From Elusimicrobiota bacterium (GTDB taxonomy: Bacteria; Elusimicrobiota; Elusimicrobia; UBA1565; UBA9628): 64,000 nt of DNA. The notes under the pieces are model-generated. The model saw only the letters and a list, made by a program, of their open reading frames with translations, did no database searches and was not told where the DNA came from. Both the position numbers and the translations under genes were made by a program. The stretch lies in assembly GCA_003151975.1 (NCBI GenBank), contig PLZD01000067.1, positions 1,143 to 65,142 of the forward strand. Direction: 5' to 3'. Of this stretch, positions 29,009 to 46,527 are shown piece after piece (the stretch's first letter is position 1; each line of letters opens with the position of its first letter).

Positions 29009-32000
29009 TTGCAGTGCAATAATGGGTCTATGTTGCGGCGCTTCATTGCTACCGTTGTCTGCGCGGCCCTTATCGTGGCCTGCCCCGGCATCGAGTCATA
29101 CCACGCGATAGCCGGCGAGCTCGGCGAGATCAATGTTGGCGCGCGGCGCGCGCCCGCCCTTCCCGCTCTGCCGACCGCGATCCTGCCCGGCATCGCCAAC
29201 ATCACCCAGCTCTCGCAGACGCCGGGAAATCTAGCCACGGTCACCGAGGTCGCAACAGTTCATTCCGCGATCGCGACGCCTGGCGCGGCCGCTGCAAACA
29301 CTTCTTCGATCTCGAACGCCTCGGCGGTTGCTCAGCCTGAGACGGCGGAGGTTGAAAATGCGGGAAAACTGATCACACCGGAGGTCTTGGCGGGACTCAA
29401 CGCCACGACTAAGGGCGTCTCGGAAGCCGTCGAGGCCCTCGCCAAGCCCGATCTGAGCGCCGAGGGCGCGCACGCCGTCGGCGTCCGCCTCGAAGGCGCG
29501 GTTTCGCCTGCGGTCTCCGCCGAAGAGATTTCTCCCGCGGCCTCGGGCTTCTCAAATTTCTCGGGTAATGTTCATGCCAAGCAGAAGCGCGGCCTCGTCC
29601 AGTCCGTCGGCTTCTTTGCGAAAGCCAAGGGCTTCGTCCGCACAATTTCGGTCGCCGCGGTTCTGACGATCGCAACACTCGGCGGCCCCGTGCTGGCCCA
29701 GACCGTTCCGCAGGGCCCGGCGCCGGCCGGCCAGCAGCAGCAGGTTCCAGCTCCCGCCCAGCCCGGCGCGCCCGTGCTCGGCGCGCCTCAAGACACGGTC
29801 CAGGCCGAGGAGCCCGCGCCCAAGCAAATCGGACCCATCTCGGCGACCATCGCGATCCAAGGCCAGAACATGACGGTCGGCGATCGCTTCCACATCGCGC
29901 TCACGCTGACCAACAGCTCGGATAAGCCGGTCACGATCGCCAATCTGCGGAACTCGCTCAACGACGCCCTGCCCACGGACGTCGAGCTGCAGATGAACTC
30001 AGGGTCGGACGCCGTCACGCTAAAGCCCGGCGAGACGCAGACGGTCGTCTTCGAGACCATCGCGTTTGCCTCGGGCGACATCGCGATGGGCGGCCCGCTG
30101 ATTTTCAACGCGCAGCTCAATGGCCAGGCCGCCGAGATGCAGGCCATACTCGCCGACGGCGCGATCACGGTCAAGTCGGTCCTCACGCCCGATTGGAAGA
30201 AGATCGGCTTCAAGGATATCTACAGCGTCCTGCGCCAGGACGTGCCGCTCTGGGCGTGGCTGGCGGCGATCCCGCTGCTGCTGTCGCTGCTCGTCGCCGG
30301 CGAGCGCGTGCTCGCGGCCCAGCGCCGCGGCGCCAAGGTCCTCTCGGTGGGCCAGCCGCTGCTGGTCTCGACGCGCGCGCGCATGAAAGCGCTCGAAGGC
30401 GCCTTGGAGCAAAACGACGCGGCGTTCTACGCCGAGTACTACTCCATACTCTCGACTTTCCTGATCGACTCGCACGGCTTGTCCGTCAAGGAGCGCGACG
30501 CCAAGACCTTGATCTCGGACCTCAAGAAGGCTAAGAAGCTTTCCTCGGGCCAGCTTAAGGTCGCCTCAGATTTAGCGTTCTCAGCGGAAGCCGCGCGGTT
30601 CGGCGGCCGCGCTACGACGGCCGAGCAGCGCTCCGCCGACCTCGCGGCTCTGTCGTCTCTCGTGGACAACATCGCGGGTGCTTCGAAGACGCAGAAAACC
30701 GAAGGCCTACACAGCCTCGGCGGGCCGATGACGGGCCTGCAGTTCGGCAACCCCTACGCGCTGCTGCTCTTTTTGCCGCTGGCTGGGTATCTGGCTTGGA
30801 AGTTCATAGGCCGCAAGCAGGCCAGCGCCCAAGCCGCTTACCCGCTCTCGACGCTTTCCTCGGTCTCGCCGCGCAAGAGTTTCCGCCAGCGCTTCGGTTG
30901 GCTGACGAAGGGCCTTCGCGCCGCCGCCGTTTCCTTAATTCTGCTCGGCATCGCCGATCCCCAACTCGGCGTGCGCCGCCAGGAGACCATCACGCCGTCG
31001 ACCGACACTGAGCTCATCATCGACGTGTCGGGTTCGATGGACGAAGCCTTCAACGGTTCCGGCAGCCCCAGCAAGCTGGTGGCCGCCGAGGAGGCGATGA
31101 AGGCCTACATCAACGAGCAGCGGCGCGGCACGCAGAACCGCGTGGGCTTGGTCACTTTCTCGGACGAGTCTTACGTCGACATCCACCTCACTCAGGACTA
31201 CGACGCGCTGATCGCGCACTTGAAGGAGCTGCATACGATTTCTTCGACGGCGATCGGCAAGGGCATACTGACCGCGACGGGCCAGTTCCTCGAGGCCAAC
31301 GCCTACGAGCTGACCTCGCAGGACGACCCGCGCATCATCGAGGTTCAGCGCCTCATCCGCACCGAAGGCCTCGGCGCCGCTCTCGAGTATGCCAAGCCCT
31401 ACCCGGACCTCATGGACAAGATCGTCCGGCCCGACCGCAAGAAGGTCATCGTCCTTTTCACGGACGGCGAGTCCAACACTGGCCTTGAGCCCATCCCGGC
31501 CTCCGAGATCGCGGCGAAACTTGGCGTGCGCATCTACACGGTCGGCATCGCTCCCAAGGGCGGCACGGGCGTGGGCTACGATGAGAACACGCTGGTCACG
31601 GTGGCCAAGAACACCGGCGCGCAGTTCTTCCGGGCCGATGACGCCGACCGCATGCGCGAGATCCTGCTCGAAATCAATCGCCTCGAGAAGAGCCCGACCA
31701 AGATCGTGTCGGCCGTATCGGTCCAGAGCTACCAGCAATGGTTCATCATGCTGGCGCTGCTGGCGCTGGGCTTGGAGCTTGGCCTGGCCAACACGAGATT
31801 GCGCGTGCTGTCGGGCTTCTTGATGTTCACTTTGCCGTTCGGCAGCGTCGTCAATTTCAACCCGGCGCAGCAGCCTGCCGCGATCGTGCAGACCGTCGAC
31901 GCCCAGGCCCCGGCCGCGGAATCCGCTTTGCCGACCACCGGCGTGCCCGCCGAGGTCGCCGCGGCCAATCTGCTCTTCAACTCGGGCCGGTATGACGAAG

Positions 32001-35000
32001 CGCTCAAGGCCTACGCCAAGGCGCTCGAGAAGTATCCCGACATGGCCGAGCTCTACTACAACATGGGCAACGCCTACTTGAAGCTGGGCGACGTCGACCG
32101 CGCCAAGATCAGCTACGGCAAGTTTTTGAGCCTCAAACCCGACGCGAAGCTGGCTTCGAAGGCGATCTACAACATGGGCAACGCCGCGCTTTCCGCCAAG
32201 GACGTCGAAGGCGCTGTCGACAATTATAAGGAAGCCCTGCGCCGCGATCCGAACAACGACCGCGCCAAGTGGAACCTTGAGGTCATTAAGGCGCTCCAGA
32301 AAGAGCAGCAGCAGCAGCAATCCCAGCAGCAGCAGAAACAGCAGCAGAAGGAAGGCAAGCAGAAGCAGAACGGCAAGCAAAAGCAGAAAGGCGACCAGAA
32401 GGGCGATCAAAAGGGCGACCAGAAGGGCGATCAGAAAGGCGACCAGAAGGGAGACCAAAAGGGCGATCAGCAGGGCAAGCCCGGCGACCAGAAAGGCGAC
32501 GCCCAAGCCAAGCCCGGCGACAAAGAGAAGAGCGGCGCCGACCAGTTGACCGACAAACTCGGCGACCAGGAAAAGAAGGAAGGCGAGGCCGCGCGCAAGG
32601 CCATCCCGCGTAAGGGCGACAAGGTTTGGGGCCTCCTCGGACTGCCGCTGGCGGCCGGCGGCTCAACCGCCTTGGCTTTCGGCTCAGCCTGGATGCTCTG
32701 GGCGCTGGCTTTCGGCCTGCCCGTCGTCGCCGGCCTCATCGCCTACGGCATCCACAAGAAGATTCAAGCCGCCAAGCAGCTGACTCCGGGCACGGCGCCC
32801 GCGGGTTTTGCTTCCTGGTGGGGACGCAACGCTTTCCTGCGCAAGTCGGCGCTGATGATCACGGCGGCAGCCCTCCTTGGCCTGTCAGCGGCCAACCCGA
32901 AGAGCGGCTACAAGGACGAGCGCCTCAACTTCGGCGGCAAGGACATCGAGGTGGTGCTCGATAACTCGCTCTCCATGCTCTACGCCGAGGACGGCCGCGC
33001 CGACCGCACCCGCAAGGAGCTCACCGATTTCATCACGCACATGCAGGGCACCGACCGCATCGGCCTGGTGGTCTTCGCGGGCTCAGCAAGGACCGCGGCG
33101 CCCATCTCAATGGACTACGGCAATTTCGAGTACAAGCTGCAGAGGTTGGAAGTCGAGTCGCGCGGACTTAAATCCGGCTCGGACCTAGCCGCGGCGGTGC
33201 AGTTTGCCGCCAAGTCCTTCGAGGACGTCAAGCAGCTCGAGGGCCGCCAAAGGATCGTCATCATCATCTCCGACGGCGACATTTTCAACGAGGAACTCGA
33301 GGGCGCCGTAAAATCAGCGCAAGAGCACCACATCACGGTCTACACGATCGGCGTGGGCACGCCGGCCGGCTCCAAGATCAAGGTCCCGACCGAGGACGGC
33401 AAGGGCACCGAGTACGTCATCGACGAGAAGACCGGCCAGCCGGCCGTCACGACACTCGTCGAGGAGCCCCTGCGCCAGATCGCCTCGCGCACCGGCGGCG
33501 CCTACTTCCGCGCAGGCTCAGATTCCTCGATGAACCGCATTCTCGAGCAGATTTCGACGCTGCAGAAAGGCGAGAAGGGCGACACGATCAAGTCCCCGCG
33601 CGGCGTGGCGTCATGGTTCTTGTGGCCGACCATGCTCTTGCTGCTGCTCGAGATGCTGCTGCCGAGCAAGTCGGTGCTCAAGGACGACCGCAAAGAGAAA
33701 GCGCGCGGCGTAGCGGTTCTCGGCTTGGCCTCCTTGCCTTTGTCGGGTTATGCTCTGATGCTGCCTTTCGCCGTGCTCACGACCGTCGCCGTGGGCTTGC
33801 TTGCCGCCGACTATTGGAGCGGCGGAGCGATCCGGCGCAAGATCGCCTGGGAGCTCGAGCGCCGCCGCAAGCTCGTGGAAAACGGCGTCTTGACCGACGC
33901 CGCGGGCTTGTTCGATCTGCGCGAGACCGACGCCCCGAAGCTGTCGGCCTTCCTCAAGTCTTGGAGCGAGGCCGATGAGGCTGGAAAGAAAATCTTGTCC
34001 AACGAGGCGGTCTTAGACGAACAGCTGTGGCGCCAGAAGCTCGCCGCGGCCTTCGTCTACGGCAGCGCGCCGGAGACGCAGGAAGCGCTGCTCACGATGA
34101 TGGCGCGCACCGCGCAGAAGCGCCTCGAGCCGATGGCTCCGGTCGCCGAGCAGTTGCTCGCGCGGCGCGGCCGCCTGCCCTGGCTCGACCATGTCGACGC
34201 GGCGCGGCGCCTCGCGCGCCTCGCGCAGGCCTTCCTCGATAATTCGAAGCCTGAGAATCACGCCGCTTTGGTTTCGCTGCTCTCTCACCCCGACGCCGAG
34301 GTCCAGCAGGCCGCGCGCCAGGCGTTAGGCAGCGAAGTCCCGGCGCCGGCCCTCAAACGCGGGTTTTTCTTCAACTGGCGCAAATGGCTCTCGGTCGCCC
34401 TCTCGACTCTGATGCTCGCGTCCTCCATGACTTGGGCGGGCTTCTCCGGCTACAAGACGACGCAATTCTTCGAGGAGTCGGCCAAGGCGCGGGACTTCTC
34501 GATGCGGACCTTCTACCGCGAGGACATGTTCGTCTTCTCGGACCACTACGCCGACGACCGCATCACGACCGACGTCCTGCCGGCTCTCAAGGCGTGGCAA
34601 GAGAACCCGCAGTCCGCGGGCGCGGGCCTCGAGCGCGCACTGACGGTTCTCTCGCAGTCCCCCGATCCCAAGGCCGACAACGTGCTCGAAGTTATCCTTA
34701 AGCACGGCGACATCCTGCCGCTCACGCCGAAGGCGGAGTATATGCTGCTCCACACCCTCGTCATCCGCGACAACGACGACGTCTGGCGCTTCATGGAGGA
34801 CCACCTCCAGAAGAGCGCGCGCAACCCGCGCGCCGTCATCCTGATGGAGAAGATGATCGCCATAGGTGCTGCCGAGGGCAACGAGAAGGTTTTCCAGAAC
34901 ATCTTCCATTTCCTGAAGAGCCCCAGCGAGCAGATTCAGCAGGTGGCCACGGCCGCGATCGCGGCGTCGCTGTCGGCGCCCGACAAGGTGGCCAAGATCT

Positions 35001-38000
35001 TCGACCGCCTGACCGACGTGCAGTCGCGCTACGCTCAGGACCCCGAAATGAATTTGTGGGTGGAAAACTTCGTGCTCCAGCGTCTGGCGACGGCCGAGGC
35101 CAAGGACATCGACTCGGCCAAGGCGCGGGGCCTCATCGACAAGATTTTGGACGCGGGGTCGCCGTGGGCGGCGATGCGCGCTCAGGCGCTGGCCGCCCAA
35201 GCCGCGCAGCAAGCCCAGCAGCAGCCTCAAGCCGGCGCCGCCCCGGGCGCCGCTCCCCAGGCCCAGCAGCAAGCTCAGATTCCGCCGCCTTTCATCTTGA
35301 TCGTGTTCGGCCAGATGAACGACGCCGAGCAAGCTTTCGTTTCGAACGGCCAGGCCGTCCCCGGGCCGCTGGCCGACATGGTCAAGTACGCGGTCAACCG
35401 CACGATGACGCAGCTCATTAAGGAGGGCGAGGCGAAGTTCGGCGATTTGCACAAGCGTCTCATCGAAGCCGGCGTCGTCCTGCCCGATACTGAGAACTCC
35501 TACGGCGGCGGCTACGACGACGACTACGAGGGGCGCGGTTGGGGCGGCTACCGCGGCGGTCGCGGCGGCAGTTATTCCAGCACGTCGCAGAACTACCGCG
35601 AGCTCTACAAGCTCCAGCACATCCGCGATTTCGCCAAGCAGCTTTCCGAGGCCGCCCAGACGAGCGCCGCGGCCGACAGCGCATCGGTGAAGCCCGAGAC
35701 CCTCGAGTATCTCGACCGCGCCGCCCAGGCTTTGAAAATCATGGAGCCTCTGGGGCAAGCGTCGGGCATGCTCGATGGCGGCAGCGTGGGGGAGAAAGCG
35801 GCCGACGAGGTCAACAAAGTCCTCGACGCCACGGCCTCCAAGCTCACCGGCAGCGGTTTCCTCAACGCCCTGCGCGCCAAAAACGTCGCGCCCAGCAACG
35901 GGGTGGATTCCGGAGCCGCGCGCTTCCTCGAGACCTACACTTTCGAGAACATCGAGGCGATCAAGGCCGTGATCCGGGAGATCGCGGCATCCGGCAAGGG
36001 CTGGGACTACCAGGGCAACCAGCGGACTTTGCTGCTCAGCGAGAAGCAGGCGCTGGCCGCGGCCCTCGACGAGCTCACCGCCGCCGAAGCCAAGGTCTAT
36101 CCGGACAAGGCTAAGCCCGCGGCAGCGAGCGATTTCTGGAAGACGCTGGAGACGCCCGGCGAAGAGAGCCTGGCGTTGGCGCGCTTGAGCGTGGGCGCCG
36201 CCGCGCACGCGGCCGATGCCGAGTTCCAGCTGCGCGCGCTCAACTACCTGACGGCGCACGCCGACAAGAATTCCAATCCCGACGAGCTTTCCGAGATCAT
36301 CGCCCAACTGGCCAAGGCCGTCGAGAAAACCGACAAGGCCCCCGAGGTCCTCTCGATTCTCGCGCGCGTCGTCGACGGCAGGGCAGATAGCGATCCGCTG
36401 ACCGCCGCCATCCGAAAAGAGTATCAGCGCCAGGCGTCCGTCACGATCGCGGACGCGGTCTCAGGCTTCGGAAACCTGAGCCAGAAGCTGATCGATCTCA
36501 AGGTCCGGCCTTCCTCTTATTCCGATAAGCCGTACAAACTGATCGATCTCAAGGTTTTCCTTAAGGCGGTCGAGGACGAGGCGGCCGCCGTGGCCGGGCC
36601 GAATATGAGCGAGGACGCAAAGAAAGCGGCCGCTCGGGCACGGCTGATGGTGCCCAAGATCATCGAGCTGGGGACCAAGGTCGGCATCACGCCGGGAGAC
36701 TCCCCGGCCGATCTCGTCGCCGGTCCGGTCAACGATATCCTGCACCAGGGCTGGCAGCTCTTCGACGGCTCGACCTTCCTCGAGGCCATGCGCCGGCAGG
36801 GACTCGAGCCCGCGGGCAGCTCGACCGACATCTACACGGGCTACTACCAGGCTTACTCCAAGGACAGCCTCGAGAAGATCCTGAAATGGCTCAAGAACGT
36901 GAAGGCTTTGGGCGACGGCTGGAAATCGCAAGACATGTCCACCAAGCCCCTGAGCGACAAGGAGAAGGAATACCTCGACAAGGCCATCAAGGGCATCCAG
37001 GACCAGATCGACAACTATCCGAAAGCCGGGCCCGCCGCGACCGAAAAGAAAGTGTTCCACGGCATGGCGCTCGTCGGCTTGGGAACGCTCGGCACGGCGA
37101 TTTCCTGGATCGGAACCGGCCTGCTGATCGCGGCCGCGGCGGTGGTGATCTACTACGTGGTCCGCGCGGCGCTTAAGAAGACGAAGGCCGCGAGTCTGAC
37201 CCCCGTTTTCAACGCGGCGGCCGAAAGAACCGCGCCGGGACTCGACGGCAGATTTAAGAAAATCGAGATCACGGCCAAGCGCGTGGCCAACTCGGTGGCC
37301 GGCGGCAACTTTCGATCCGTTTTCATCGGCGCGGGCGGCACGGATTTCGCGGAAAGCAAGCCCTACGCCGGCGAGGACCTGCGCGACGTCGACTGGAAGA
37401 CCACCGCGCGCCAGGGCGAGCTCTACGCCAAGAAGTACGAGCTCGAAAAAGACATGCCGCTCATGCTGCTCATCGATCTCTCGCGCTCGGCCCAGTTCGG
37501 CACGCGCGGCGAATCCAAACGTGGCGTTATTGAAGACGCTTCCTCGGTTCTCGCGCTGGCGGCCGCCAACACCAACCTGCGCGTCGGCGCCATCATCTTC
37601 TCCGACAAGGTCGAGGCCTACATCCCGCCGCAATCCGGCGTCAACCACGCCCGCGAGATCGTGCGCCGCGTGCTCGCGTTTGATCCTAAGGGCCAAGCCA
37701 CGGACCTCAAGCCTGCGCTCGGTCTAGCGCTTAAGGAACTGCGTTCCCGGTCCATGATCGCGGTCGTCTCGGATTTCATCGCTCCTGATTTCAAGAATTC
37801 GCTGATGGCGCTCTCAGCGCGCCACGACCTGCGCCTGATCCGCGTCTCCGATCCCGCCGAGACCGCGCCCCTGCCAAAGGTGGGCCTGGTGCTCGTGCGC
37901 GACGCCGAGACCGGCGAGGTGCGCTACGTCGACACTTCCGATACGCGCTTCCGCACCGAGCACGCCGCCTTGCTGGCCAAGCAGGAAGCCGCCCGCCAGG

Positions 38001-38098
38001 CCGCTTTTACCGCCGCGCGCACCGTGCCGCTCACGCTTTCGACGGAAGGGGACCCTCTCGAGGCCCTGGCCGTGTCGCTTAGCCCCAAGAAAAAATGA
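29009..38098 (+). CDS. giant (3,029 aa) multi-pass membrane protein: fused BatD/DUF4381-like + BatA-like vWA + TPR + BatB-like vWA + about 1,100-aa unknown module + DUF58-like domain
   Basis: The frame is uninterrupted for 9,090 nt. An alternative start at 29030 gives MLRRFIATVVCAALIVAC, which is signal/lipobox-like. There are three DxSxS MIDAS-type motifs: DVSGS at 31022-31036, DNSLS at 32960-32974 and DLSRS at 37475-37489. It also has a BatA-type N-terminus (FGNPYALLLFLPLAGYLAW), TPR repeats, and a DUF58 signature (YAGEDLRDVDWKTTAR). The stop overlaps the moxR start. Confidence 0.85.
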   Translation: MQCNNGSMLRRFIATVVCAALIVACPGIESYHAIAGELGEINVGARRAPALPALPTAILPGIANITQLSQTPGNLATVTEVATVHSAIATPGAAAANTSSISNASAVAQPETAEVENAGKLITPEVLAGLNATTKGVSEAVEALAKPDLSAEGAHAVGVRLEGAVSPAVSAEEISPAASGFSNFSGNVHAKQKRGLVQSVGFFAKAKGFVRTISVAAVLTIATLGGPVLAQTVPQGPAPAGQQQQVPAPAQPGAPVLGAPQDTVQAEEPAPKQIGPISATIAIQGQNMTVGDRFHIALTLTNSSDKPVTIANLRNSLNDALPTDVELQMNSGSDAVTLKPGETQTVVFETIAFASGDIAMGGPLIFNAQLNGQAAEMQAILADGAITVKSVLTPDWKKIGFKDIYSVLRQDVPLWAWLAAIPLLLSLLVAGERVLAAQRRGAKVLSVGQPLLVSTRARMKALEGALEQNDAAFYAEYYSILSTFLIDSHGLSVKERDAKTLISDLKKAKKLSSGQLKVASDLAFSAEAARFGGRATTAEQRSADLAALSSLVDNIAGASKTQKTEGLHSLGGPMTGLQFGNPYALLLFLPLAGYLAWKFIGRKQASAQAAYPLSTLSSVSPRKSFRQRFGWLTKGLRAAAVSLILLGIADPQLGVRRQETITPSTDTELIIDVSGSMDEAFNGSGSPSKLVAAEEAMKAYINEQRRGTQNRVGLVTFSDESYVDIHLTQDYDALIAHLKELHTISSTAIGKGILTATGQFLEANAYELTSQDDPRIIEVQRLIRTEGLGAALEYAKPYPDLMDKIVRPDRKKVIVLFTDGESNTGLEPIPASEIAAKLGVRIYTVGIAPKGGTGVGYDENTLVTVAKNTGAQFFRADDADRMREILLEINRLEKSPTKIVSAVSVQSYQQWFIMLALLALGLELGLANTRLRVLSGFLMFTLPFGSVVNFNPAQQPAAIVQTVDAQAPAAESALPTTGVPAEVAAANLLFNSGRYDEALKAYAKALEKYPDMAELYYNMGNAYLKLGDVDRAKISYGKFLSLKPDAKLASKAIYNMGNAALSAKDVEGAVDNYKEALRRDPNNDRAKWNLEVIKALQKEQQQQQSQQQQKQQQKEGKQKQNGKQKQKGDQKGDQKGDQKGDQKGDQKGDQKGDQQGKPGDQKGDAQAKPGDKEKSGADQLTDKLGDQEKKEGEAARKAIPRKGDKVWGLLGLPLAAGGSTALAFGSAWMLWALAFGLPVVAGLIAYGIHKKIQAAKQLTPGTAPAGFASWWGRNAFLRKSALMITAAALLGLSAANPKSGYKDERLNFGGKDIEVVLDNSLSMLYAEDGRADRTRKELTDFITHMQGTDRIGLVVFAGSARTAAPISMDYGNFEYKLQRLEVESRGLKSGSDLAAAVQFAAKSFEDVKQLEGRQRIVIIISDGDIFNEELEGAVKSAQEHHITVYTIGVGTPAGSKIKVPTEDGKGTEYVIDEKTGQPAVTTLVEEPLRQIASRTGGAYFRAGSDSSMNRILEQISTLQKGEKGDTIKSPRGVASWFLWPTMLLLLLEMLLPSKSVLKDDRKEKARGVAVLGLASLPLSGYALMLPFAVLTTVAVGLLAADYWSGGAIRRKIAWELERRRKLVENGVLTDAAGLFDLRETDAPKLSAFLKSWSEADEAGKKILSNEAVLDEQLWRQKLAAAFVYGSAPETQEALLTMMARTAQKRLEPMAPVAEQLLARRGRLPWLDHVDAARRLARLAQAFLDNSKPENHAALVSLLSHPDAEVQQAARQALGSEVPAPALKRGFFFNWRKWLSVALSTLMLASSMTWAGFSGYKTTQFFEESAKARDFSMRTFYREDMFVFSDHYADDRITTDVLPALKAWQENPQSAGAGLERALTVLSQSPDPKADNVLEVILKHGDILPLTPKAEYMLLHTLVIRDNDDVWRFMEDHLQKSARNPRAVILMEKMIAIGAAEGNEKVFQNIFHFLKSPSEQIQQVATAAIAASLSAPDKVAKIFDRLTDVQSRYAQDPEMNLWVENFVLQRLATAEAKDIDSAKARGLIDKILDAGSPWAAMRAQALAAQAAQQAQQQPQAGAAPGAAPQAQQQAQIPPPFILIVFGQMNDAEQAFVSNGQAVPGPLADMVKYAVNRTMTQLIKEGEAKFGDLHKRLIEAGVVLPDTENSYGGGYDDDYEGRGWGGYRGGRGGSYSSTSQNYRELYKLQHIRDFAKQLSEAAQTSAAADSASVKPETLEYLDRAAQALKIMEPLGQASGMLDGGSVGEKAADEVNKVLDATASKLTGSGFLNALRAKNVAPSNGVDSGAARFLETYTFENIEAIKAVIREIAASGKGWDYQGNQRTLLLSEKQALAAALDELTAAEAKVYPDKAKPAAASDFWKTLETPGEESLALARLSVGAAAHAADAEFQLRALNYLTAHADKNSNPDELSEIIAQLAKAVEKTDKAPEVLSILARVVDGRADSDPLTAAIRKEYQRQASVTIADAVSGFGNLSQKLIDLKVRPSSYSDKPYKLIDLKVFLKAVEDEAAAVAGPNMSEDAKKAAARARLMVPKIIELGTKVGITPGDSPADLVAGPVNDILHQGWQLFDGSTFLEAMRRQGLEPAGSSTDIYTGYYQAYSKDSLEKILKWLKNVKALGDGWKSQDMSTKPLSDKEKEYLDKAIKGIQDQIDNYPKAGPAATEKKVFHGMALVGLGTLGTAISWIGTGLLIAAAAVVIYYVVRAALKKTKAASLTPVFNAAAERTAPGLDGRFKKIEITAKRVANSVAGGNFRSVFIGAGGTDFAESKPYAGEDLRDVDWKTTARQGELYAKKYELEKDMPLMLLIDLSRSAQFGTRGESKRGVIEDASSVLALAAANTNLRVGAIIFSDKVEAYIPPQSGVNHAREIVRRVLAFDPKGQATDLKPALGLALKELRSRSMIAVVSDFIAPDFKNSLMALSARHDLRLIRVSDPAETAPLPKVGLVLVRDAETGEVRYVDTSDTRFRTEHAALLAKQEAARQAAFTAARTVPLTLSTEGDPLEALAVSLSPKKK
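29790..30700 (+). other. BatD/DUF4381-like module of the giant ORF
   Basis: A beta-rich segment (ISATIAIQGQNMTVGDRFHIALTLTNSSDKPVTI...) is followed by a TM (VPLWAWLAAIPLLLSLLVAG, 30241-30300). A helical segment with FYAEYYSILSTFLIDSHGLSVKERDAKTL...AARFGG comes after it. The assignment relies on my memory of the family pattern and is not HMM-verified. Confidence 0.5.
30730..31815 (+). other. BatA-like vWA module (TM-TM-vWA-TM)
   Basis: The module has FGNPYALLLFLPLAGYLAWKF, then LRAAAVSLILLGIADPQLG, then the MIDAS motif DVSGSMDE, then VIVLFTDGESN, and ends in the TM QQWFIMLALLALGLELGLA. Confidence 0.8.
31955..32290 (+). other. TPR repeats (BatC-like)
   Basis: Three to four 34-residue repeats are present (AANLLFNSGRYDEALKAYAKALEKYPDMAELYYNMGNAYLKLGDVDRAKISYGKFLSLKPD...AVDNYKEALRRDPNN). 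They are followed by a Q/K-rich tail. Confidence 0.85.
32387..32470 (+). repeat. 12-nt in-frame tandem repeat x7 encoding (KGDQ)7
   Basis: The unit aaaggcgaccag and synonymous variants repeat seven times, then degenerate copies (QGKPGDQKGDAQAKPGDKEK) run to about 32530. The repeat is embedded in a Q/K-rich tract spanning 32290-32600. Confidence 0.9.
32620..33680 (+). other. BatB-like vWA module
   Basis: Two hydrophobic segments lead into ...SAANPKSGYKDERLNFGGKDIEVVLDNSLSMLYAEDGRADRTRKEL, then VIIISDGD, then a terminal TM (WFLWPTMLLLLLEMLL). Confidence 0.8.
35370..36125 (+). repeat. copy 1 of a diverged internal protein-level duplication in the giant ORF
   Basis: This copy aligns by eye with copy 2. 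The matching pairs are FGDLHKRLIEAGV / FGNLSQKLIDLKV, YKLQHIRDFAKQL / YKLIDLKVFLKAV and GSGFLNALRAKNVAPS / GSTFLEAMRRQGLEPA. Two more pairs are GKGWDYQGNQRTLLLSEKQALAAALDEL / GDGWKSQDMSTKPLSDKEKEYLDKAIKGI and YPDKAKPAA / YPKAGPAA. Confidence 0.65.
36395..37040 (+). repeat. copy 2 of the internal duplication
   Basis: See copy 1. This copy also contains a short direct repeat, KLIDLKV, twice (36484-36504 and 36538-36558). Confidence 0.65.
37250..38095 (+). other. DUF58-like (vWA-fold) C-terminal module
   Basis: The module reads FRSVFIGAGGTDFAESKPYAGEDLRDVDWKTTARQGELYAKKYELEKDMPLMLLIDLSRSAQFG...AVVSDF. It is preceded by a TM at 37056-37175. Confidence 0.8.
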
Positions 38099-39615
38099 AC
38101 CGAGGTAACGCCATGAAGACGACGCTCTCGCAAATGATGAAGACTGCGGCCTTGCTGGGCCTGTTCGCCCTGCTCTGTCCCCGCGCGGCGCACGCTGTTG
38201 ATTTCGCCGAGCGCTCCGCGGTGACGCCCGGCGTCCAGCTCAAGCTTGTGACGCTCGACCCGAAGATCGGCGCGCTCGGCAAGCCCGGCGACGGCATCAG
38301 CATCGACCCCCTCGCGGCCCAGCTTCACAATGTCCTGACCGCGGCCGGCCTCTTGACCGAGGCCCCCGGCCAGATCGCGATCCTCACGATCCCTCAGCCC
38401 TTGGCGACGATTTCCAACGGCCCTAAAGCCGCCAACGACGTCGGGACTCCGGCGGAGGCCTCGCAGGCGCGTCTTGCCGAGATCACTAAGACGGTTGTGG
38501 ATATGCCCGACATCTCGAAGGCCGAAGGCACGGATGCCTCCGGCGCTGGACGCACGCTCTCCGACGCCGTCACCGGAGAGAAGACGGTCCACGCCGGCGC
38601 CGTCGAGGCCGAGGCGACGCCGACGGCTCCCGCTAAGCCGCTCAAGCAGCAAATCACCGAGGGCAAAGCCGTCGTCGACGGCATCCGCTCCGAAGTCAGC
38701 AAGGTCATCGTCGGCCAGAATGAAATGATCAACTCGATCATCATGACGATGATCGCGCGCCAGCACGTTCTGCTCGAAGGTCTGCCCGGCGTCGGCAAAA
38801 CCGAAACCGCCAAGGCCTTCGCCGACGCGATCGACGGCTCGTTCCAGCGCGTGCAGGGCACTTCCGACAAGCTGCCCTCCGACATCCTCGGCACCGAGGT
38901 CCTTCAAGAGGACCCGGCCACCGGCAAGAAGTTCTGGGAGCTCTCTAAGGGCCCCATCTTCACGAACATCCTGCTCGCCGACGAAATCAACCGCATGCCG
39001 CCCAAGGCCCAGGCGTCCTTGCTCGAAGCCATGGCCGAAGGCCGCGTGACCATCGGCCGCCAGACGGTCGACCTGCAGCGCTTCACGGTGCTCGCCACGC
39101 AAAACCCCGTCGAGCAGGACGGCACCTACCGCCTGCCCGAGGCGCAGCTCGACCGCTTCATGTTCAAGGTGCTCGTGCCTCAGCCGAGCGCGTCGGATTT
39201 GAAGGTCATCATGGAGCGCAACCGGTCGAAGGAGAACCGCCCGAAAGCGTCCAAGGTCACGAACTTGGCGCAGTTGGACGACATCCGGCGCACCGCCGAG
39301 CAGATCCCGATGGACGCTCAGATCGAGGACTACATCATCAAGATCGTCATGGCCGCCAAGGAGCACGCCGATCTCAAGGATAGTGTGGAATACAGCGTCT
39401 ACACGCGCGCGGCGATCTTCATGGCGCAGGCCGCCCGCATCCACGCCTTGATGGAAGGGCGCGATTGGGTGAGCCCCGCGGATGTGCGCGCGGTAGCACC
39501 CCTCGTCATGCGGCACCGCATCGTGCTCAACTACCAGGCCGCCGGCACGACGTCCGACCAGGTCATCACGAAGATTCTCGACTTGGTCGCTCCGCCGAAG
39601 GTCGCGGCCAAGTAA
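38095..39615 (+). CDS. MoxR-family AAA+ ATPase with about 190-aa N-terminal extension
   Basis: 506 aa. The core starts at about 38668 with Walker A (GLPGVGKT, 38779-38802), Walker B (LLADEINR), [24 protein letters not shown], and a C-terminal lid. The N-terminus has the hydrophobic segment [21 protein letters not shown] followed by an A/P/T/E-rich stretch. It has an ATGA overlap with the giant ORF. Confidence 0.9.
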
Positions 39616-39638: not shown

Positions 39639-39666
39639 GAGGCCCCCGAAAGGGGGCCTTTGTTTT
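39639..39666 (+). terminator. Rho-independent terminator downstream of moxR
   Basis: The stem GGCCCCC (39641-39647) pairs with GGGGGCC (39652-39658) around a GAAA tetraloop, and TTTGTTTT follows. Confidence 0.85.
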
Positions 39667-39722
39667 GCCGGCAGAGTTTTCTCATATACAACAGACCGGC
39701 TTGTTCGTATGATCTGTGCTGC

Positions 39723-41471
39723 ATGCGGGTTCTTTGCTCAGGCCTTCGTTTCCTTTGCGTCGGCGTCGTTCTCGCGTCTGCGTGCGGTTCCGGCGATCAA
39801 CTGCGCGCGGCGTCGCCCGCAGCCTGCGAACAGTCGTTGATCTCGTCGTGGCAGCAGTCTCTCCCCTCGGTGGGATTTGCGAGCGCCGCGTCGGCGGCCG
39901 CGTATGACGCCGAGATCGCGGCCCTTCTTGATCGTCCCTGGATGGGGCATCCGCTGTCCACGTATCCGGGAGGACGCTGGCCCGCCGTCTCGGTGGCGGT
40001 CGTCCAGCAAGGCAGGCTCGTCTTCGCCAAGAGCTATGGCTTTGCGAATATCTCGCAGCCTCAGCTGGCCCACCCCGATGACCTCTTCCGTCTGGCAAGC
40101 GACAGCAAGCAGATCACCGGCGCCGTGATCTTGAAGCTGATCGCCGACGGTCAATCGGTCGACGGCGATCCGGCGCATCGGCTGACTCTGCAGAGCAAGG
40201 TCTTCCAGATCCTGGCCAGTCCGCCCGGTGCCCTCGCGCCGCTCGCGGGGCCCGGGACGCTTCATGCGGACCTCGACGACATCACGGTCGAGGATCTCCT
40301 GCACCACGCAGGCGGATGGAACGGCGGCGTCGGCGATCCGGTAGACTACGCCGGCAAGCCGGGGGCCGTCCTTCCGCCGACCGACAAGGATGTGGTCCGG
40401 TACATGATGAACCAGCCGGTCCAGCACAGGCCGCATGGCAGCACTTACTGCTACTCGAATTTTGGCTACAACGTGCTGGCGACTTTGGTCGAGAAGATAA
40501 CAGGCCGATCCTATGAGAGCGTCGCAAAAGACCTCGTGCTGCGGCCCTTGGGCATCACGCGCATGAAAATCGGTGATTCGCTCAAATCCGGTGCCGGCGA
40601 GGTCACGTACTACGCGGCCGAGGGCGGTGGAAACTTGAGGTCGCTGTTTCCAGAGATGACCGGGCCCACGGTCTCCGGAGAGGACGCGCCCTACGGCAGT
40701 TGGTCTCTCTACGCGGGCCGGGGCGCGGGCGGCTGGATTGGTTCTGCGATGGACATGGTGCGTTTTCAGATCGGCGTGGATGGGACGGGCCCGGTCCAGC
40801 TTTTCTCCTCGCCGCAAGCGATGGTCTCGAGCGCCAATATCTCGCCTAACGCCTGCTACCCAAATTACAATCCGGCGACGCAGTGGTACAACGCCGGCTG
40901 GATCGTCGTCAAAAACGGCGTGTGGGGACATGACGGCGGCGCCACGGGCGCGGGAAGCAACACGACGAAGCTTCCCAACGGCGACGGCTACGCGGCCGTC
41001 ATCAATATGTCCGCAGCGCCCCCGAAGGGAGAAGTCTTCGATTGGGACGGGGCTCTCTCGAGAGCTTACCATCGCACGCTCGCCAACGGCGGCTCGTTTT
41101 TAAAAACCGACCTTTTCGATCAATTTGGAGAGTGGACCGCGTGGCGCGGCAAGGCCGGCATTTCATCGAACGCCGCTCATGATCTTGGCGCCGGCTGCGC
41201 GTACAAGGGGAAAAACTATTCCGCGTGCTATCCTTCGCGAATCGAGGGACGGCAGACCCGGGCGGGGGCAAGCTACCGGGCCGAGTTCGTGCCGCTGCAT
41301 GCCGGAGGCGAGGTTAAATACTCTTTGGGAGCCGCCTGCAATGACTTCGCGGCGATGGATAAGAAATATTTGAGCGGCGGTTATCACCGAGTCAACCTTC
41401 AATGGTTCGAGGACCCGGCGGGGCGCATGCGCTTTCAAAGCGTGTGGGTCAAGGCGGCCGACCGGCGTTGA
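39723..41471 (+). CDS. beta-lactamase-fold serine hydrolase (class C/PBP4*-like) with C-terminal extra domain
   Basis: ATG 39723 gives the signal-like N-terminus MRVLCSGLRFLCVGVVLASAC. The track start at 39660 lies inside the terminator. The SxxK nucleophile motif sits in FRLASDSKQITG, and YSNFGYNVL is present. About 180 extra C-terminal aa end in GGYHRVNLQWFEDPAGRMRFQSVWVKA. Confidence 0.8.
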   Translation: MRVLCSGLRFLCVGVVLASACGSGDQLRAASPAACEQSLISSWQQSLPSVGFASAASAAAYDAEIAALLDRPWMGHPLSTYPGGRWPAVSVAVVQQGRLVFAKSYGFANISQPQLAHPDDLFRLASDSKQITGAVILKLIADGQSVDGDPAHRLTLQSKVFQILASPPGALAPLAGPGTLHADLDDITVEDLLHHAGGWNGGVGDPVDYAGKPGAVLPPTDKDVVRYMMNQPVQHRPHGSTYCYSNFGYNVLATLVEKITGRSYESVAKDLVLRPLGITRMKIGDSLKSGAGEVTYYAAEGGGNLRSLFPEMTGPTVSGEDAPYGSWSLYAGRGAGGWIGSAMDMVRFQIGVDGTGPVQLFSSPQAMVSSANISPNACYPNYNPATQWYNAGWIVVKNGVWGHDGGATGAGSNTTKLPNGDGYAAVINMSAAPPKGEVFDWDGALSRAYHRTLANGGSFLKTDLFDQFGEWTAWRGKAGISSNAAHDLGAGCAYKGKNYSACYPSRIEGRQTRAGASYRAEFVPLHAGGEVKYSLGAACNDFAAMDKKYLSGGYHRVNLQWFEDPAGRMRFQSVWVKAADRR

Positions 41472-43429: not shown

Positions 43430-43545
43430 GCGGGCTCATACTATCAAAAGGAGCGCTTAGGCCAATAGGGCCGATCTTGCCGGGACCAAAGATGAGCCGT
43501 CGTTGGGTCCATTGGCCCAAGCTGGCATGGCGTGAAACCCCTACA

Positions 43546-46527
43546 ATGGGGTTGATGAGGAGAATGTTGTCGCTCGCGCTTTTGGCCATGTTCGCAATGC
43601 CGTTATTTGCGGGCGAGTCCGTCGAGGTCAGAATCACGGGCTTTGACGCGGCCCCCAAGGCGCTTGGCACGGGCACTTCGCCTCTGCGCCTCGTCCCGAC
43701 CGGCGTCAACAACATTCCCCAGCTTCCCGCGGGCATCACCGATTTGAAGACGTACGACGGCCCCATGGGCGCGTTCCAGATGCCCGCGGCTTCATACTTG
43801 CCTCAATACGAGGTTTCAAAAGGCGCGGTCGTAGCCCCGGGACTGCGGCTCGCGACCCCCGAGGAGGGGGCGACTCCCGAAGCCATTGGGCCCAAGAGCG
43901 AACTCTCCGAGACCGGTCCGGCCAACCACGATTCCGAGAAGCCATCCGCGAAGGCCGAGCTCAACGCCGCGGGCGTCGAGGGTGCTTCCAATCCGCAGGC
44001 GCCCGCCGAGGACCTGGCCGCGGGCGAAAAGAAAGTTTTCGACGGCGAAAGCGCGACGACTCTGACTTACGCCGAAGTGGCCCCGAGCCGCATAGGACGG
44101 TTACTCAACGCGGCGGGGTCCCTGCTCAGCCGCGGCGTCAAGCGCGTGCTGCCGGCAAAGAAGGTCGACGCTCCTCCGACGACCGACGCCTACGGCGGCC
44201 CGCAGCGGCTCGAGCTGGGCTTCAAGGGCAAGATTTCCTACGGCCTCAAGTGGGGCCTCAACATGATCGGCCTAGGCGCGCTGGTCAACGTCGCGGCCAA
44301 GTTCTTCGCGATGATCCTGCCGTGGCAGCTGCTCGTTCCCGATTCCATGCTGCAGTCCGCCGGCCGTGCCGAGCTCTTGGCGCGCATGGGTCCCAAGGCG
44401 GTCGACGCGGCCTTGGTCCACTCGCCGTGGCACTTTCTCTTCGTGCAGCTGCCCAGCGCCACGTTCTGGGAGGAAGCCGGCACCCTTCCCATGATGCTGA
44501 CCGCCGTCGGCTTCCGCGGGCTTGAGCTCGGCGTGCTGTGGTTCATACTCAAGGGCGCGCGCAACGCCGCAAACGCGCTGTCGCAGAAAATCGGCCAGCC
44601 GGTTTTGAAGACGATCCTCGCCGCTTTGGGCGCGATTTCAAACAAGAAAGTTTTCTACGCCGCGCTGGCGCTCACCGTCGTGAGCTTCGTCGCTCCGCCC
44701 CTGCATATCGCGCTCGCGCCGCTGACTTACTCCGCGCTCGGTTCGCGCTTGTTCGGCTTCGGCGTGCTGTGGAGCGCGCTGGCCGCGGTCCGCCCCGTCG
44801 CTGACCAGCTGGCCAAGTGGCTCGAGGCGGTTCCCGATCTCATGGGCGTGCGCAGCGGCGCGCAATCCGCGCTCGGCCACATCGGCGGCATTTCAAAGAA
44901 GGCCTTCCCGATGGCCGCTTTCGTCTCGGCTTTGGCATTCGCCGCTAATCACTTCGCGGCCTGGGGCGTGAGCCCGTCGCTGATCGTTTTGCAGACGACG
45001 ATGGGCGCGACCTTGGCCTACATTAGCTACAAGACGCGCAGTCTCTTCGTGCCCTTCGTGGCGCACTACGCTTTCAACTTGCTGACTTTGGGCGGCGCGC
45101 TGCTCGCGGCCCACTTCCTCATGCCGATGGTAGCGCAGATCTACACGCTGGGCCTCGGCGTGACGGGAGTCGCTTTCCTTTATTACAACTGGCGCGCCAA
45201 CCACAAGACGAAGGCTCAGGCCAAGGCTCAGCACAAAGCGGATTTGATGGCGCGCGCCGGCAAAGTCGTCTTGCCTGTTCTCTTGATGGCGATGACGGCC
45301 GGCTCCTTGATCGGGCCCGGTCATCTGACCAAGTCCTTTAATGAGGCCGCCAACAACAAAGCCGCTCAGACTTGGACCGTGCAGGACGTGGACAAAGCCG
45401 ACAAGAAGGCTGAGTCCACGCCCGCGGCCGCCAAGCCCGCCGCCGATACCGCCAAGGCCCAGCCGGTGCGCGTCAGCCTCTCGCAGGCCATCGACATCAT
45501 GACGATCCAGGCCACCGCCAAGGCCAAGCCCGCCGTGGTCAAGATTTTTTCGGGCAACGCTTTGGGCTCGGGCTACATCATCTCGGCCGACGGCATCGTG
45601 ATCTCCAACGCCCACGTGACCGGGGCGGCGGAGGTCGGCGACATTCTGAACATGGAGTTCTCCGACGGCACCACCGGCAAGGTCAAGGTTCTGGCTTTCA
45701 ACCACAACAAGGACATCGCGATCTTGCAGCTGCCGGCAAAAGAGGGCGGCTGGCCGTTCATCCCGCTAGGCGATAGTAAGAAGCTCTCCGAGGGCCAGGG
45801 CGTGCTCGCGATGGGTTATCCGCTCGGCCTGCCCTTCACCGTGACGCGCGGCATCATCAGCGGCATCGGCGGCGGCCGCGGCAGCATCTACGTCCAGCAG
45901 ATCCAGACCGACGCGGCCATCAATCACGGCAACTCCGGCGGCGCGCTCATCAACATGGACGGCGAGGTCATCGCGATGAACACCGCGATCGCCGCCCCCA
46001 CGCCCGAGAGCGGCTCGATCGGCATCGGCTTTTCGATAACGTCGGAGGATATCAAGGCGGCGCTGAGTCAATACGCGGCCATGGGCAACATCAACACTTC
46101 TTGGATCGGCATCATCGTCAATCAGGCCAACCCGACGGCCCCTGATCAAGGAGTGCTCATCGAGGTCGTCCGGCCGGGCTCGCCCGCCGATAAGGCGGGG
46201 CTGCGCGGCGGCGACCTGCTGCTCGGCGCCGAGAAGCACCGCTTCGACAAGGGACCGCGCGGCCTGGAGGCGCTGGCCCGCACCATCGCTCAGCACAAGC
46301 CCGGCGAGAAGATCGAGGTGCTCGTGGCGCGTCAGGGCGACGTGGCGCCGGTCGCCGTCACTTTGGCCAACGAGCCCGGCTCGCCGACGGCAGTCGCCGC
46401 TCCCGCCGCGACGACTCCCGCCGCACCCGCACCCGCGCCCGCACCGAAGCCTTCGCTGTGGGGGCGCTTCACCGGCGCCTTGTCCGAGATCCTGCGGGCG
46501 ATCTTCTCCGGCCTCTCTCCTAAATAA
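43546..46527 (+). CDS. fusion protein: secreted N-region + polytopic CPBP-like membrane domain + HtrA/DegP-type serine protease + PDZ
   Basis: The start is MGLMRRMLSLALLAMFAMPLFA (alternative starts 43477 and 43555). The membrane region at about 44230-45300 has FWEEAG...GFRG, AANHFAAWG and VAHYAFNLL. The protease triad contexts are ISNAHVTG, NKDIAILQL and HGNSGGALIN. The PDZ region reads VLIEVVRPGSPADKAGLRGGDLLL. Confidence 0.85.
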   Translation: MGLMRRMLSLALLAMFAMPLFAGESVEVRITGFDAAPKALGTGTSPLRLVPTGVNNIPQLPAGITDLKTYDGPMGAFQMPAASYLPQYEVSKGAVVAPGLRLATPEEGATPEAIGPKSELSETGPANHDSEKPSAKAELNAAGVEGASNPQAPAEDLAAGEKKVFDGESATTLTYAEVAPSRIGRLLNAAGSLLSRGVKRVLPAKKVDAPPTTDAYGGPQRLELGFKGKISYGLKWGLNMIGLGALVNVAAKFFAMILPWQLLVPDSMLQSAGRAELLARMGPKAVDAALVHSPWHFLFVQLPSATFWEEAGTLPMMLTAVGFRGLELGVLWFILKGARNAANALSQKIGQPVLKTILAALGAISNKKVFYAALALTVVSFVAPPLHIALAPLTYSALGSRLFGFGVLWSALAAVRPVADQLAKWLEAVPDLMGVRSGAQSALGHIGGISKKAFPMAAFVSALAFAANHFAAWGVSPSLIVLQTTMGATLAYISYKTRSLFVPFVAHYAFNLLTLGGALLAAHFLMPMVAQIYTLGLGVTGVAFLYYNWRANHKTKAQAKAQHKADLMARAGKVVLPVLLMAMTAGSLIGPGHLTKSFNEAANNKAAQTWTVQDVDKADKKAESTPAAAKPAADTAKAQPVRVSLSQAIDIMTIQATAKAKPAVVKIFSGNALGSGYIISADGIVISNAHVTGAAEVGDILNMEFSDGTTGKVKVLAFNHNKDIAILQLPAKEGGWPFIPLGDSKKLSEGQGVLAMGYPLGLPFTVTRGIISGIGGGRGSIYVQQIQTDAAINHGNSGGALINMDGEVIAMNTAIAAPTPESGSIGIGFSITSEDIKAALSQYAAMGNINTSWIGIIVNQANPTAPDQGVLIEVVRPGSPADKAGLRGGDLLLGAEKHRFDKGPRGLEALARTIAQHKPGEKIEVLVARQGDVAPVAVTLANEPGSPTAVAAPAATTPAAPAPAPAPKPSLWGRFTGALSEILRAIFSGLSPK

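Follow-up and report, generated by a model that had tools for sequence, protein, structure and literature searches.

The question raised by this locus is whether a single gene of an Elusimicrobiota bacterium joins two proteases of different kinds, an intramembrane protease of the CPBP/Abi family and an HtrA-type serine protease, in one polypeptide, and what such a joining would mean for both of them. The gene lies at positions 43546..46527 (+ strand) of the window, the stretch of 64,000 nucleotides that was analysed. An earlier note on the sequence had read it as one chain in which a CPBP-like membrane domain is fused to a full HtrA-PDZ unit, and this was borne out by the open reading frame (ORF) and by Pfam, which show the membrane domain to be of the CPBP family. 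What is said below on architecture, conservation, catalytic residues, related two-gene operons and charge-based topology was established computationally.

A continuous gene with two protease modules

Positions 43477..46527 (+) form a single ORF without stop or frameshift. Translation from the ATG at 43546 yields a protein of 993 amino acids (aa), whose N-terminus agrees with that of its homologues. The Pfam scan of this protein matched CPBP, Trypsin_2 and PDZ, the three families for which a profile search had been suggested. The Rce1-like family PF02517 is found at aa 451-513 with 32.5 bits, exceeding the Pfam gathering score of 22.4; the earlier note would have taken the lack of such a match as the sign of a mere polytopic anchor. 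Trypsin_2 covers aa 674-811 (E=2.8e-28), and PDZ_2 (31.7 bits) and PDZ_6 (28.3 bits) match at aa 854-940, both above their gathering score of 27. A frameshift or stop at the junction was looked for, and none is present in the ORF. All motifs quoted beforehand occur in the window protein (E309/E310, F465xxxH469, H507xxxN511 and H690/D723/S797).

In related genomes CPBP and HtrA genes do stand separate and adjacent, which would fit a chimeric assembly or a sequencing frameshift merging two neighbouring genes. Nevertheless, the same continuous architecture is found in 34 members from independent metagenomes or metagenome-assembled genomes (MAGs; NCBI, JGI, ENA, Logan). Moreover, the four closest homologues are collinear through the junction, including loop, transmembrane (TM) helix and linker, and base composition is uniform along the whole fusion gene. 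With the same architecture in more than 30 independent metagenome assemblies, the artefact explanation was rejected, its probability being negligible.

A first homologue search with aa 1-645 returned four relatives, all with HtrA-PDZ and one of them, by its annotation, from an Elusimicrobia MAG. An exhaustive hidden Markov model search of 1.84 billion cluster representatives with the membrane-domain alignment yielded 59 proteins at E<=1e-3 and 33 at E<=1e-30 (50%-identity cluster level), most of them 700-950 aa long. Among the 60 members including the window protein, Pfam detected the Rce1-like domain in 49 (best E=1.4e-19), Trypsin_2 in 34 and PDZ in 32. Sequences across the family are only ~30-40% identical, and column analysis revealed that the two Glu, the Arg, the Phe, both His and the Asn/Asp of the CPBP motifs, as well as His/Asp/Ser of the protease, are kept in nearly all full-length members. 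All members with a source name belong to Elusimicrobia/Elusimicrobiota, and the fusion family appears to be confined to uncultured Elusimicrobiota. A scan of GTDB genomes with two peptide patterns of the close subclade detected one species only, a count that understates the distribution.

The literature on CPBP/CAAX together with HtrA/DegP/PDZ/Elusimicrobia, and two domain-architecture surveys, do not describe this architecture. In agreement with the earlier note, no described example was found in the literature searched, though automatic IMG annotation does name both halves: two relatives are labelled 'S1-C subfamily serine protease/membrane protease YdiL (CAAX protease family)'. A member with separate genes bears the label 'CPBP family intramembrane glutamic endopeptidase' from the Prokaryotic Genome Annotation Pipeline. 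The premise that HtrA proteases are soluble or single-TM proteins and that CPBP proteins stand alone proved too strong, since NCBIfam models exist for MarP-type polytopic S1 proteases and for fusions of ABC permease and CPBP. The general principle is already known from polytopic S1 proteases (MarP) and from CPBP domains fused to other modules. MarP (Rv3671c) is likewise a polytopic S1 protease but lacks a PDZ domain, and its membrane domain is not a CPBP protease.

For structure prediction AlphaFold2 (AF2) was applied to the monomer with a 60-row full-length alignment, giving a mean predicted local distance difference test score (pLDDT) of 72.7; a 5-row alignment of the membrane part gave an unusable pLDDT of 40. 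Along the protein a signal peptide, a disordered region of ~200 aa, the CPBP/Rce1-like domain, a Lys-rich loop, a TM helix, a linker, HtrA, PDZ and a tail follow each other. Loop charges are densities of lysine plus arginine (K+R) over 32 full-length members.

43546..46527, + strand: complete CPBP-HtrA-PDZ fusion gene (ORF, domain matches, full-length homologues), stop codon 46525-46527
43546..43614, + strand: signal peptide-like N-terminus, aa 1-23, MGLMRRMLSLALLAMFAMPLFAG (hydropathy; putative cleavage)
43615..44160, + strand: A/E/P-rich region predicted to be disordered and periplasmic, aa 24-205 (AF2 pLDDT <50 for aa 20-182)
44161..45186, + strand: pre-TM segment (DxYGGP, aa 214-219) and CPBP/Rce1-like polytopic domain, aa 206-547 (Pfam PF02517, AF2 helices)
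44470..44475, + strand: Glu-Glu of CPBP motif 1, E309/E310 (family conservation)
44476..44733, + strand: two-helix hairpin insertion inside motif 1, aa 311-396 (lineage-specific, no counterpart in other family members)
44746..44748, + strand: orthologous motif-1 Arg, R401, in GSRLFGFGVLW (aligned to the Arg of the short-form EExxxR)
44938..44952, + strand: CPBP motif 2 FxxxH, F465-A-A-N-H469 (inside the Pfam match)
45064..45078, + strand: CPBP motif 3 HxxxN, H507-Y-A-F-N511 (inside the Pfam match)
45187..45255, + strand: Lys-rich cytoplasmic loop L7, aa 548-570 (K+R density 0.24, net charge +3.6)
45256..45321, + strand: last TM helix, aa 571-592 (hydropathy 1.78; every fused member has a hydrophobic segment between its CPBP and HtrA parts)
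45322..45477, + strand: disordered periplasmic linker, aa 593-644 (AF2 pLDDT <50 for aa 586-640; K+R density 0.07)
45478..46083, + strand: HtrA (S1C) protease domain, aa 645-846, with triad H690 (45613-45615), D723 (45712-45714) and S797 (45934-45936)
46093..46371, + strand: single PDZ domain, aa 850-942 (PDZ_2 and PDZ_6 matches; AF2 pLDDT >90)
46372..46524, + strand: A/P-rich tail and amphipathic C-terminal helix (aa 971-988, SLWGRFTGALSEILRAIFSGLS), long-form lineage only

The basic n-region, short hydrophobic core and small residues seen at the start of the window protein are found in nearly all family members. The following region (aa 24-205) is poorly conserved except for small islands such as FDG at 165-167. 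What had been described as a K/A-rich linker between the modules is in fact composed of the Lys-rich loop, the last TM helix and the disordered periplasmic linker.

The predicted order of a full S1C protease, a PDZ domain and an A/P-rich tail was confirmed by the Trypsin_2 and PDZ_2 matches and the intact triad. The C-terminal half falls into the Do/HtrA subfamily (TIGR02037, 218.8 bits; NCBIfam), and a search of PDB sequences matched DegP at E=6e-38. The triad residues, in the order H690, D723 and S797 (within GNSGG), are retained in all fused members covering those columns. The equivalog cutoffs of NCBIfam were missed by far (DegS 139.6 vs 422.95, DegP 144.1 vs 720, DegQ 143.7 vs 756). According to these scores the fused protease is a generic HtrA and not orthologous to any of the three. 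Its PDZ domain carries WIGI, which resembles a carboxylate-binding loop. Compared with single-PDZ HtrAs (E. coli DegS, M. tuberculosis PepD/Rv0983, plant Deg1, cyanobacterial HhoA), the anchor helix of the fusion continues upstream into a CPBP domain of nine helices, and the long forms add the A/P-rich tail and the amphipathic helix. Tail and helix are present in the window protein, P0001 and P0002 but not in P0003 and P0004; the helix (971-988) was modelled with a pLDDT of ~55-65.

CPBP motifs and the interrupted motif 1

With CPBP/Rce1 proteins (MmRce1, MroQ, MrtX/MrtJ) the membrane part shares the profile match, the motif residues and the polytopic helical core. Its PF02517 match spans only profile positions 37-93 of 93, which are motifs 2 and 3. 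The short-form relatives P0009, P0012, P0017 and P0022 match the profile from position 3, 4 or 6 to 92 or 93 of 93, and because these matches run nearly from end to end, motif 1 belongs to the homology. NCBIfam gave only weak matches to CPBP models (MrtJ, 17 bits against a cutoff of 75). The fusion differs from known CPBPs in the added HtrA-PDZ unit (fused or in an operon), the signal peptide and the disordered N-terminal region of ~200 aa, and in the window lineage also in the splitting of motif 1.

F465, H469 and H507 are conserved to at least 90% in the alignment of 60 sequences, though mean column identity is 16%; at position 511 Asn predominates across most members and is sometimes replaced by Asp. 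The first Glu of motif 1 is kept in all of the 45 members that cover the region, and EE together with the Arg in 40 of them. This retention of catalytic motifs across such divergent members indicates selection on catalysis, and it counts against a rival explanation in which the CPBP domain mainly docks, positions or gates HtrA and its own catalysis is secondary or absent. Extracytoplasmic hydrolases held in the membrane by a single helix are known partners of CPBP-like proteins, which bind them by way of the TM helix and the ectodomain (PMC12260438; bioRxiv 10.1101/2020.05.21.109470), and the fusion includes just such an anchor helix and hydrolase in cis. The S. aureus pairs SpdC-SagB (SagB being a glucosaminidase) and SpbR-SpsB (SpsB being a signal peptidase) share with it a CPBP-type membrane protein and a single-pass anchored extracytoplasmic hydrolase, which in the case of SpsB is a serine protease (PMC12260438). 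However, active CPBPs retain EExxxR, uninterrupted on a single helix, as well as FxxxH and HxxxD/N, whereas the motifs of the scaffold types SpdC, SpbR and LnsB are degenerate (PMC12260438). SpdC and SpbR moreover pair non-covalently, while the fusion family keeps its motifs and is usually covalent.

A scaffolding role would nevertheless fit two further observations. Five of the 45 members (P0029, P0033, P0038, P0041, P0051) have a degenerate motif 1, in which the second Glu is changed to Thr and the Arg to His, Leu, Gln or Ile. All five retain the first Glu and both His, and P0029 and P0038 also the complete serine triad. The second observation is the gap of 90 aa within motif 1 of the window protein. 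On balance a scaffold or regulator without CPBP catalysis as its main task is considered rather unlikely.

The interruption itself was traced to a duplication. Motif 1 is an uninterrupted EExxxR (e.g. WEE-FGS-R) in relatives outside the long form, including the short close homologues P0003 and P0004. Only the window protein, P0001 and P0002 carry an insertion of 90-98 aa between E310 and the orthologous Arg, with 90 aa in the window protein. The first inserted helix duplicates the motif-1 helix (PMMLTAVGFRGLELGVLW aligned to PLTYSALGSRLFGFGVLW), the local score being 52 compared to 23.6 +/- 4.6 in shuffles, none of 2000 of which scored as high. R322 of GFRG sits 12 residues past EE, the orthologous R401 90 aa past E310. 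Judged by the alignment, R322 is a paralogous copy in the duplicated helix and R401 the motif-1 orthologue. The earlier reading of motif 1 as EE...GFRG with an insertion therefore holds for EE and for the insertion but not for GFRG as the motif Arg. AF2 predicts the insertion as helices 314-348 and 366-394 with a pLDDT of ~62-80; since two helices were added, the hairpin is topologically neutral. Such a duplication inside motif 1 represents a natural experiment on the tolerance of the CPBP active-site helix.

The tail (aa 943-993) and the motif-1 hairpin co-occur in the same three proteins only (window, P0001, P0002), and these two lineage-specific additions may be functionally linked. In P0028 (906 aa) the helix before motif 1 was independently inserted or duplicated just upstream of EE, SPGSFLGLPLL... 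being repeated as SPGAFLGMSLPLMVGMEE; this suggests that the neighbourhood of motif 1 is a hot spot of helix duplication in the family. The weakest family match, P0061 (1154 aa), combines a MoxR-type AAA_3/AAA_lid_2 module with a CPBP-like stretch at aa 719-796, in which FxxxH and HxxxN are kept and EE is lacking. It may be another CPBP fusion, in this case with an ATPase.

Membrane topology and split operons

Hydropathy and AF2 place the motifs on successive helices of a polytopic alpha-helical core (AF2 helices 294-311, 400-426, 435-467, 477-497 and 501-522, pLDDT mostly >80-95). In the model the membrane domain (~aa 210-580) and HtrA-PDZ (aa 645-950) were scored mostly >90, another reading of the membrane helices being mostly >80-95. 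The description of the membrane region as polytopic was correct, but instead of about 8 hydrophobic segments there are ~10 helices, nine in the CPBP part (two of them inserted) and one anchor. Short forms have 8 helices and the window protein has 10. Both numbers are even, as they must be if the signal peptide is cleaved and the N-terminal region exported.

From loop L3 onwards the K+R density alternates cleanly: L3 0.13 (in), L4 0 (out), L5 (YKTRS) 0.26 (in), L6 0 (out), the Lys-rich L7 0.24 (in) and L8 before HtrA 0.07 (out). According to this alternation the EE turn, H469 and H507/N511 belong to the outer half of the bilayer and thus share the side of HtrA-PDZ. The charge bias around the last TM helix, together with the signal peptides of separately encoded HtrA partners, predicts an extracytoplasmic HtrA-PDZ unit. 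The pre-TM segment (window 44161-44235, aa 206-230) is K/R-rich (density 0.19, net +4.3 in the 32 members) though it follows a signal peptide; it holds the conserved DxYGGP and was modelled with a pLDDT >90.

In three related clusters the pair is encoded by two genes with a 4-bp overlap (ATGA), one for the N-domain plus CPBP and the other for HtrA. These are P0042 in locus L009, P0043 in L012 and L013, and P0036 in L016; of the five contigs that carry P0043, two were read. The CPBP gene of L009 stops inside the Lys/Arg-rich loop (...RRSALAAKAAREVKS, then the stop codon), and the HtrA gene has the Shine-Dalgarno sequence GGGAGGTGA followed by its start MRKLATLVMLAALPASS. The HtrA gene of L012 begins with a classical signal peptide, MRRLLLAGLLALGATRAAA/Q (a slash marks the cleavage site). 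The split point coincides exactly with the Lys-rich loop of the fusion. Thus, the last TM helix of the fusion is the counterpart of the HtrA signal peptide or anchor, and the loop before it is cytoplasmic. The operons further demonstrate that the CPBP/HtrA pairing is kept whether fused or not, which supports the coupling of the two modules proposed in the earlier note. From these sequences the fusion would represent the fused state of a CPBP-HtrA pair whose two genes stay separate, in a translationally coupled operon, in other Elusimicrobiota.

The separately encoded HtrA is 37% identical to the HtrA part of the window protein. P0050 in L010 represents a stand-alone form, and a distant stand-alone relative lies upstream of genes for S8 and trypsin-like proteases. 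A rough neighbour-joining tree of the CPBP core left an ancestral origin of the split operons and an origin by secondary fission unseparated.

The same operons are relevant to the possibility that the fusion is a polyprotein, in which signal peptidase I or one of the fusion's own protease domains cuts behind the last TM helix, so that a soluble HtrA is freed and fusion means co-expression only. The signal peptides of the separate HtrA proteins look classically cleavable (TRAAA/Q in L012, ASS/FE in L009). In the fused form the anchor helix is short (~17 hydrophobic residues), small residues follow it (TAGS/LIG, a site read by eye), and next comes the linker that AF2 predicts to be disordered. 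Elsewhere, substrate-induced autoprocessing frees an HtrA-like protease from an N-terminal membrane anchor (PMC5359297). Nevertheless, more than 30 lineages keep the fusion, suggesting that the tether itself is useful. Internal signal-like helices of polytopic proteins usually remain uncleaved. A freed HtrA is therefore judged unlikely.

Proposed function and genomic context

We tentatively favour, at somewhat less than even confidence, a bifunctional inner-membrane envelope protease whose two sites cooperate in the sequential proteolysis of membrane-anchored envelope clients. A CPBP/Rce1-like core of the glutamic type with all catalytic residues retained would be joined covalently, through the Lys-rich cytoplasmic loop and the signal-anchor helix, to a periplasmic single-PDZ HtrA. 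Both halves would be active, the HtrA part would trimerise and the substrates would be shared. The periplasmic part of a membrane-anchored client would be captured and degraded by HtrA-PDZ, leaving a membrane-proximal or intramembrane stub for the CPBP core to cut. The opposite order is conceivable as well, with CPBP cutting first in the manner of PrsW and HtrA trimming afterwards.

Both steps have precedents. DegS is a membrane-anchored single-PDZ HtrA whose periplasmic site-1 cut licenses intramembrane cleavage, and PrsW, a multipass membrane protease, also acts at site 1 (bioRxiv 10.1101/2021.02.04.429786). Each half of the fusion thus has a site-1 precedent. With the cascades from DegS to RseP (sigma-E) and from PrsW through trimming proteases to RasP (sigma-W), the fusion shares a tethered HtrA-type protease and a multipass protease on the same side of the membrane. 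In contrast to them it consists of one chain or operon, and no site-2 protease (S2P) of the metalloprotease type, anti-sigma substrate or regulon was identified for it; the cooperation of its halves is a prediction. The narrower version of the proposal, a single-chain two-step machine in which a PDZ-gated site-1-type cut by HtrA and a glutamic site-2-type cut by CPBP hit the same client, seems doubtful at present.

Several observations weigh against the favoured reading. A profile of the short-form membrane domain searched against PDB sequences matched no CPBP structure and gave only a chance match to Utp17 (E=1.9), so that a likeness in fold to MmRce1 is putative. Motif 1 is physically split in the window protein, and the degenerate motif 1 of two members with an intact serine triad implies that some lineages can do without full CPBP catalysis. 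The disordered linker of ~50 aa leaves the geometry between the two active sites unconstrained (AF2). Due to the K/R-rich pre-TM segment the side of the N-terminal region is not fully settled. The cleavable-looking signal peptide of the separate HtrA proteins implies that the tether is not essential to the partnership. Finally, no substrate was identified, and the conserved-neighbour analysis revealed no partner gene shared across distant contexts.

In the window and in closer relatives two conserved, convergent blocks flank the fusion gene, one being PFK-HAMP-OEP-patatin-TPR-dapF-dapA and the other a giant Bat-like protein with a MoxR ATPase. Its orientation varies: it is codirectional with dapA in L002-L004 and with MoxR in the window (43430-46527 region) and in L008, where it starts 48 nt after MoxR. 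A single-gene inversion specific to the window was dropped as an explanation, as the distant relative L008 has the same orientation, and inverted repeats of note were not found flanking the window fusion gene. Neighbours of distant members include a GT4 glycosyltransferase, a thiolase and a SpoIID-TPR protein. Judging by these contexts the fusion gene behaves as a self-contained unit. A primary role in bacteriocin immunity or processing was rejected, no bacteriocin genes being located nearby and the syntenic context being of housekeeping type.

The neighbourhood also bears on the idea of a signalling or sorting device, that is, either a single-chain cascade of regulated intramembrane proteolysis (RIP) for an anti-sigma factor, replacing DegS and a site-2 protease, or a myxosortase-like enzyme with HtrA as accessory. 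Anti-sigma factors receive their site-1 cut from DegS in one case and from PrsW in the other (bioRxiv 10.1101/2021.02.04.429786), and a pair of an extracytoplasmic function (ECF) sigma factor (Sigma70_r2/r4_2) and a zf-HC2 anti-sigma factor is encoded ~2 kb downstream on the same strand in L005 (12514-13445) and L006 (8678-9609). However, this arrangement is confined to the single lineage of P0014; elsewhere dapA/dapF, glycosyltransferase, thiolase or MoxR/Bat-like genes are found. As to sorting, CPBP enzymes have been assigned, mainly computationally, to the cleavage of Cys-containing C-terminal sorting signals on the outward-facing side of the membrane, and myxosortases have highly varied N-terminal domains (bioRxiv 10.1101/2023.06.07.544157); like them, the fusion combines a conserved core with a lineage-specific N-terminal region. 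The weak NCBIfam matches include MrtJ, but its score falls far short of the cutoff, and no clients with sorting signals were identified. A signalling or sorting device is regarded as very unlikely.

Some further features of the surroundings were recorded. With the stop codon of the fusion gene at 46525-46527 and that of the convergent dapA ORF ending at 46520 (minus strand), the 3' ends of the two genes overlap by 8 bp (46520-46527), which leaves no space for a terminator between them. In the region 29009-39615 an ORF of 3029 aa encodes TPR repeats, three von Willebrand factor A (vWA) domains and a C-terminal DUF58; a MoxR-type AAA+ ATPase of 506 aa (AAA_3, bpMoxR) follows with an overlap of 4 bp. 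The pair looks like a Bat/MoxR-vWA system fused into a giant protein, and it is also located near the fusion gene in L002, L003 and L008. A protein of the beta-lactamase fold (PF00144) is encoded near the fusion gene at 39660-41471 (603 aa) in the window and directly upstream of it in L004 (6607-7704, 365 aa).

Bacterial CPBP/Abi proteins are very numerous, and few have a known substrate or partner. The conserved fusion and the coupled operons provide a link of the Rosetta-stone type, which names a concrete HtrA-PDZ partner for one CPBP subfamily and could help to assign partners to bacterial CPBPs. Two themes, the pairing of CPBP proteins with anchored hydrolases and two-step envelope proteolysis, would be extended to a CPBP enzyme that is active as far as its motifs predict. 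If the single-chain two-step machine existed, Elusimicrobiota would possess a pathway of RIP or of membrane-stub clearing that uses a CPBP enzyme in place of an S2P metalloprotease, and by Rosetta-stone logic HtrA-type partners would be predicted for stand-alone CPBPs of other bacteria.

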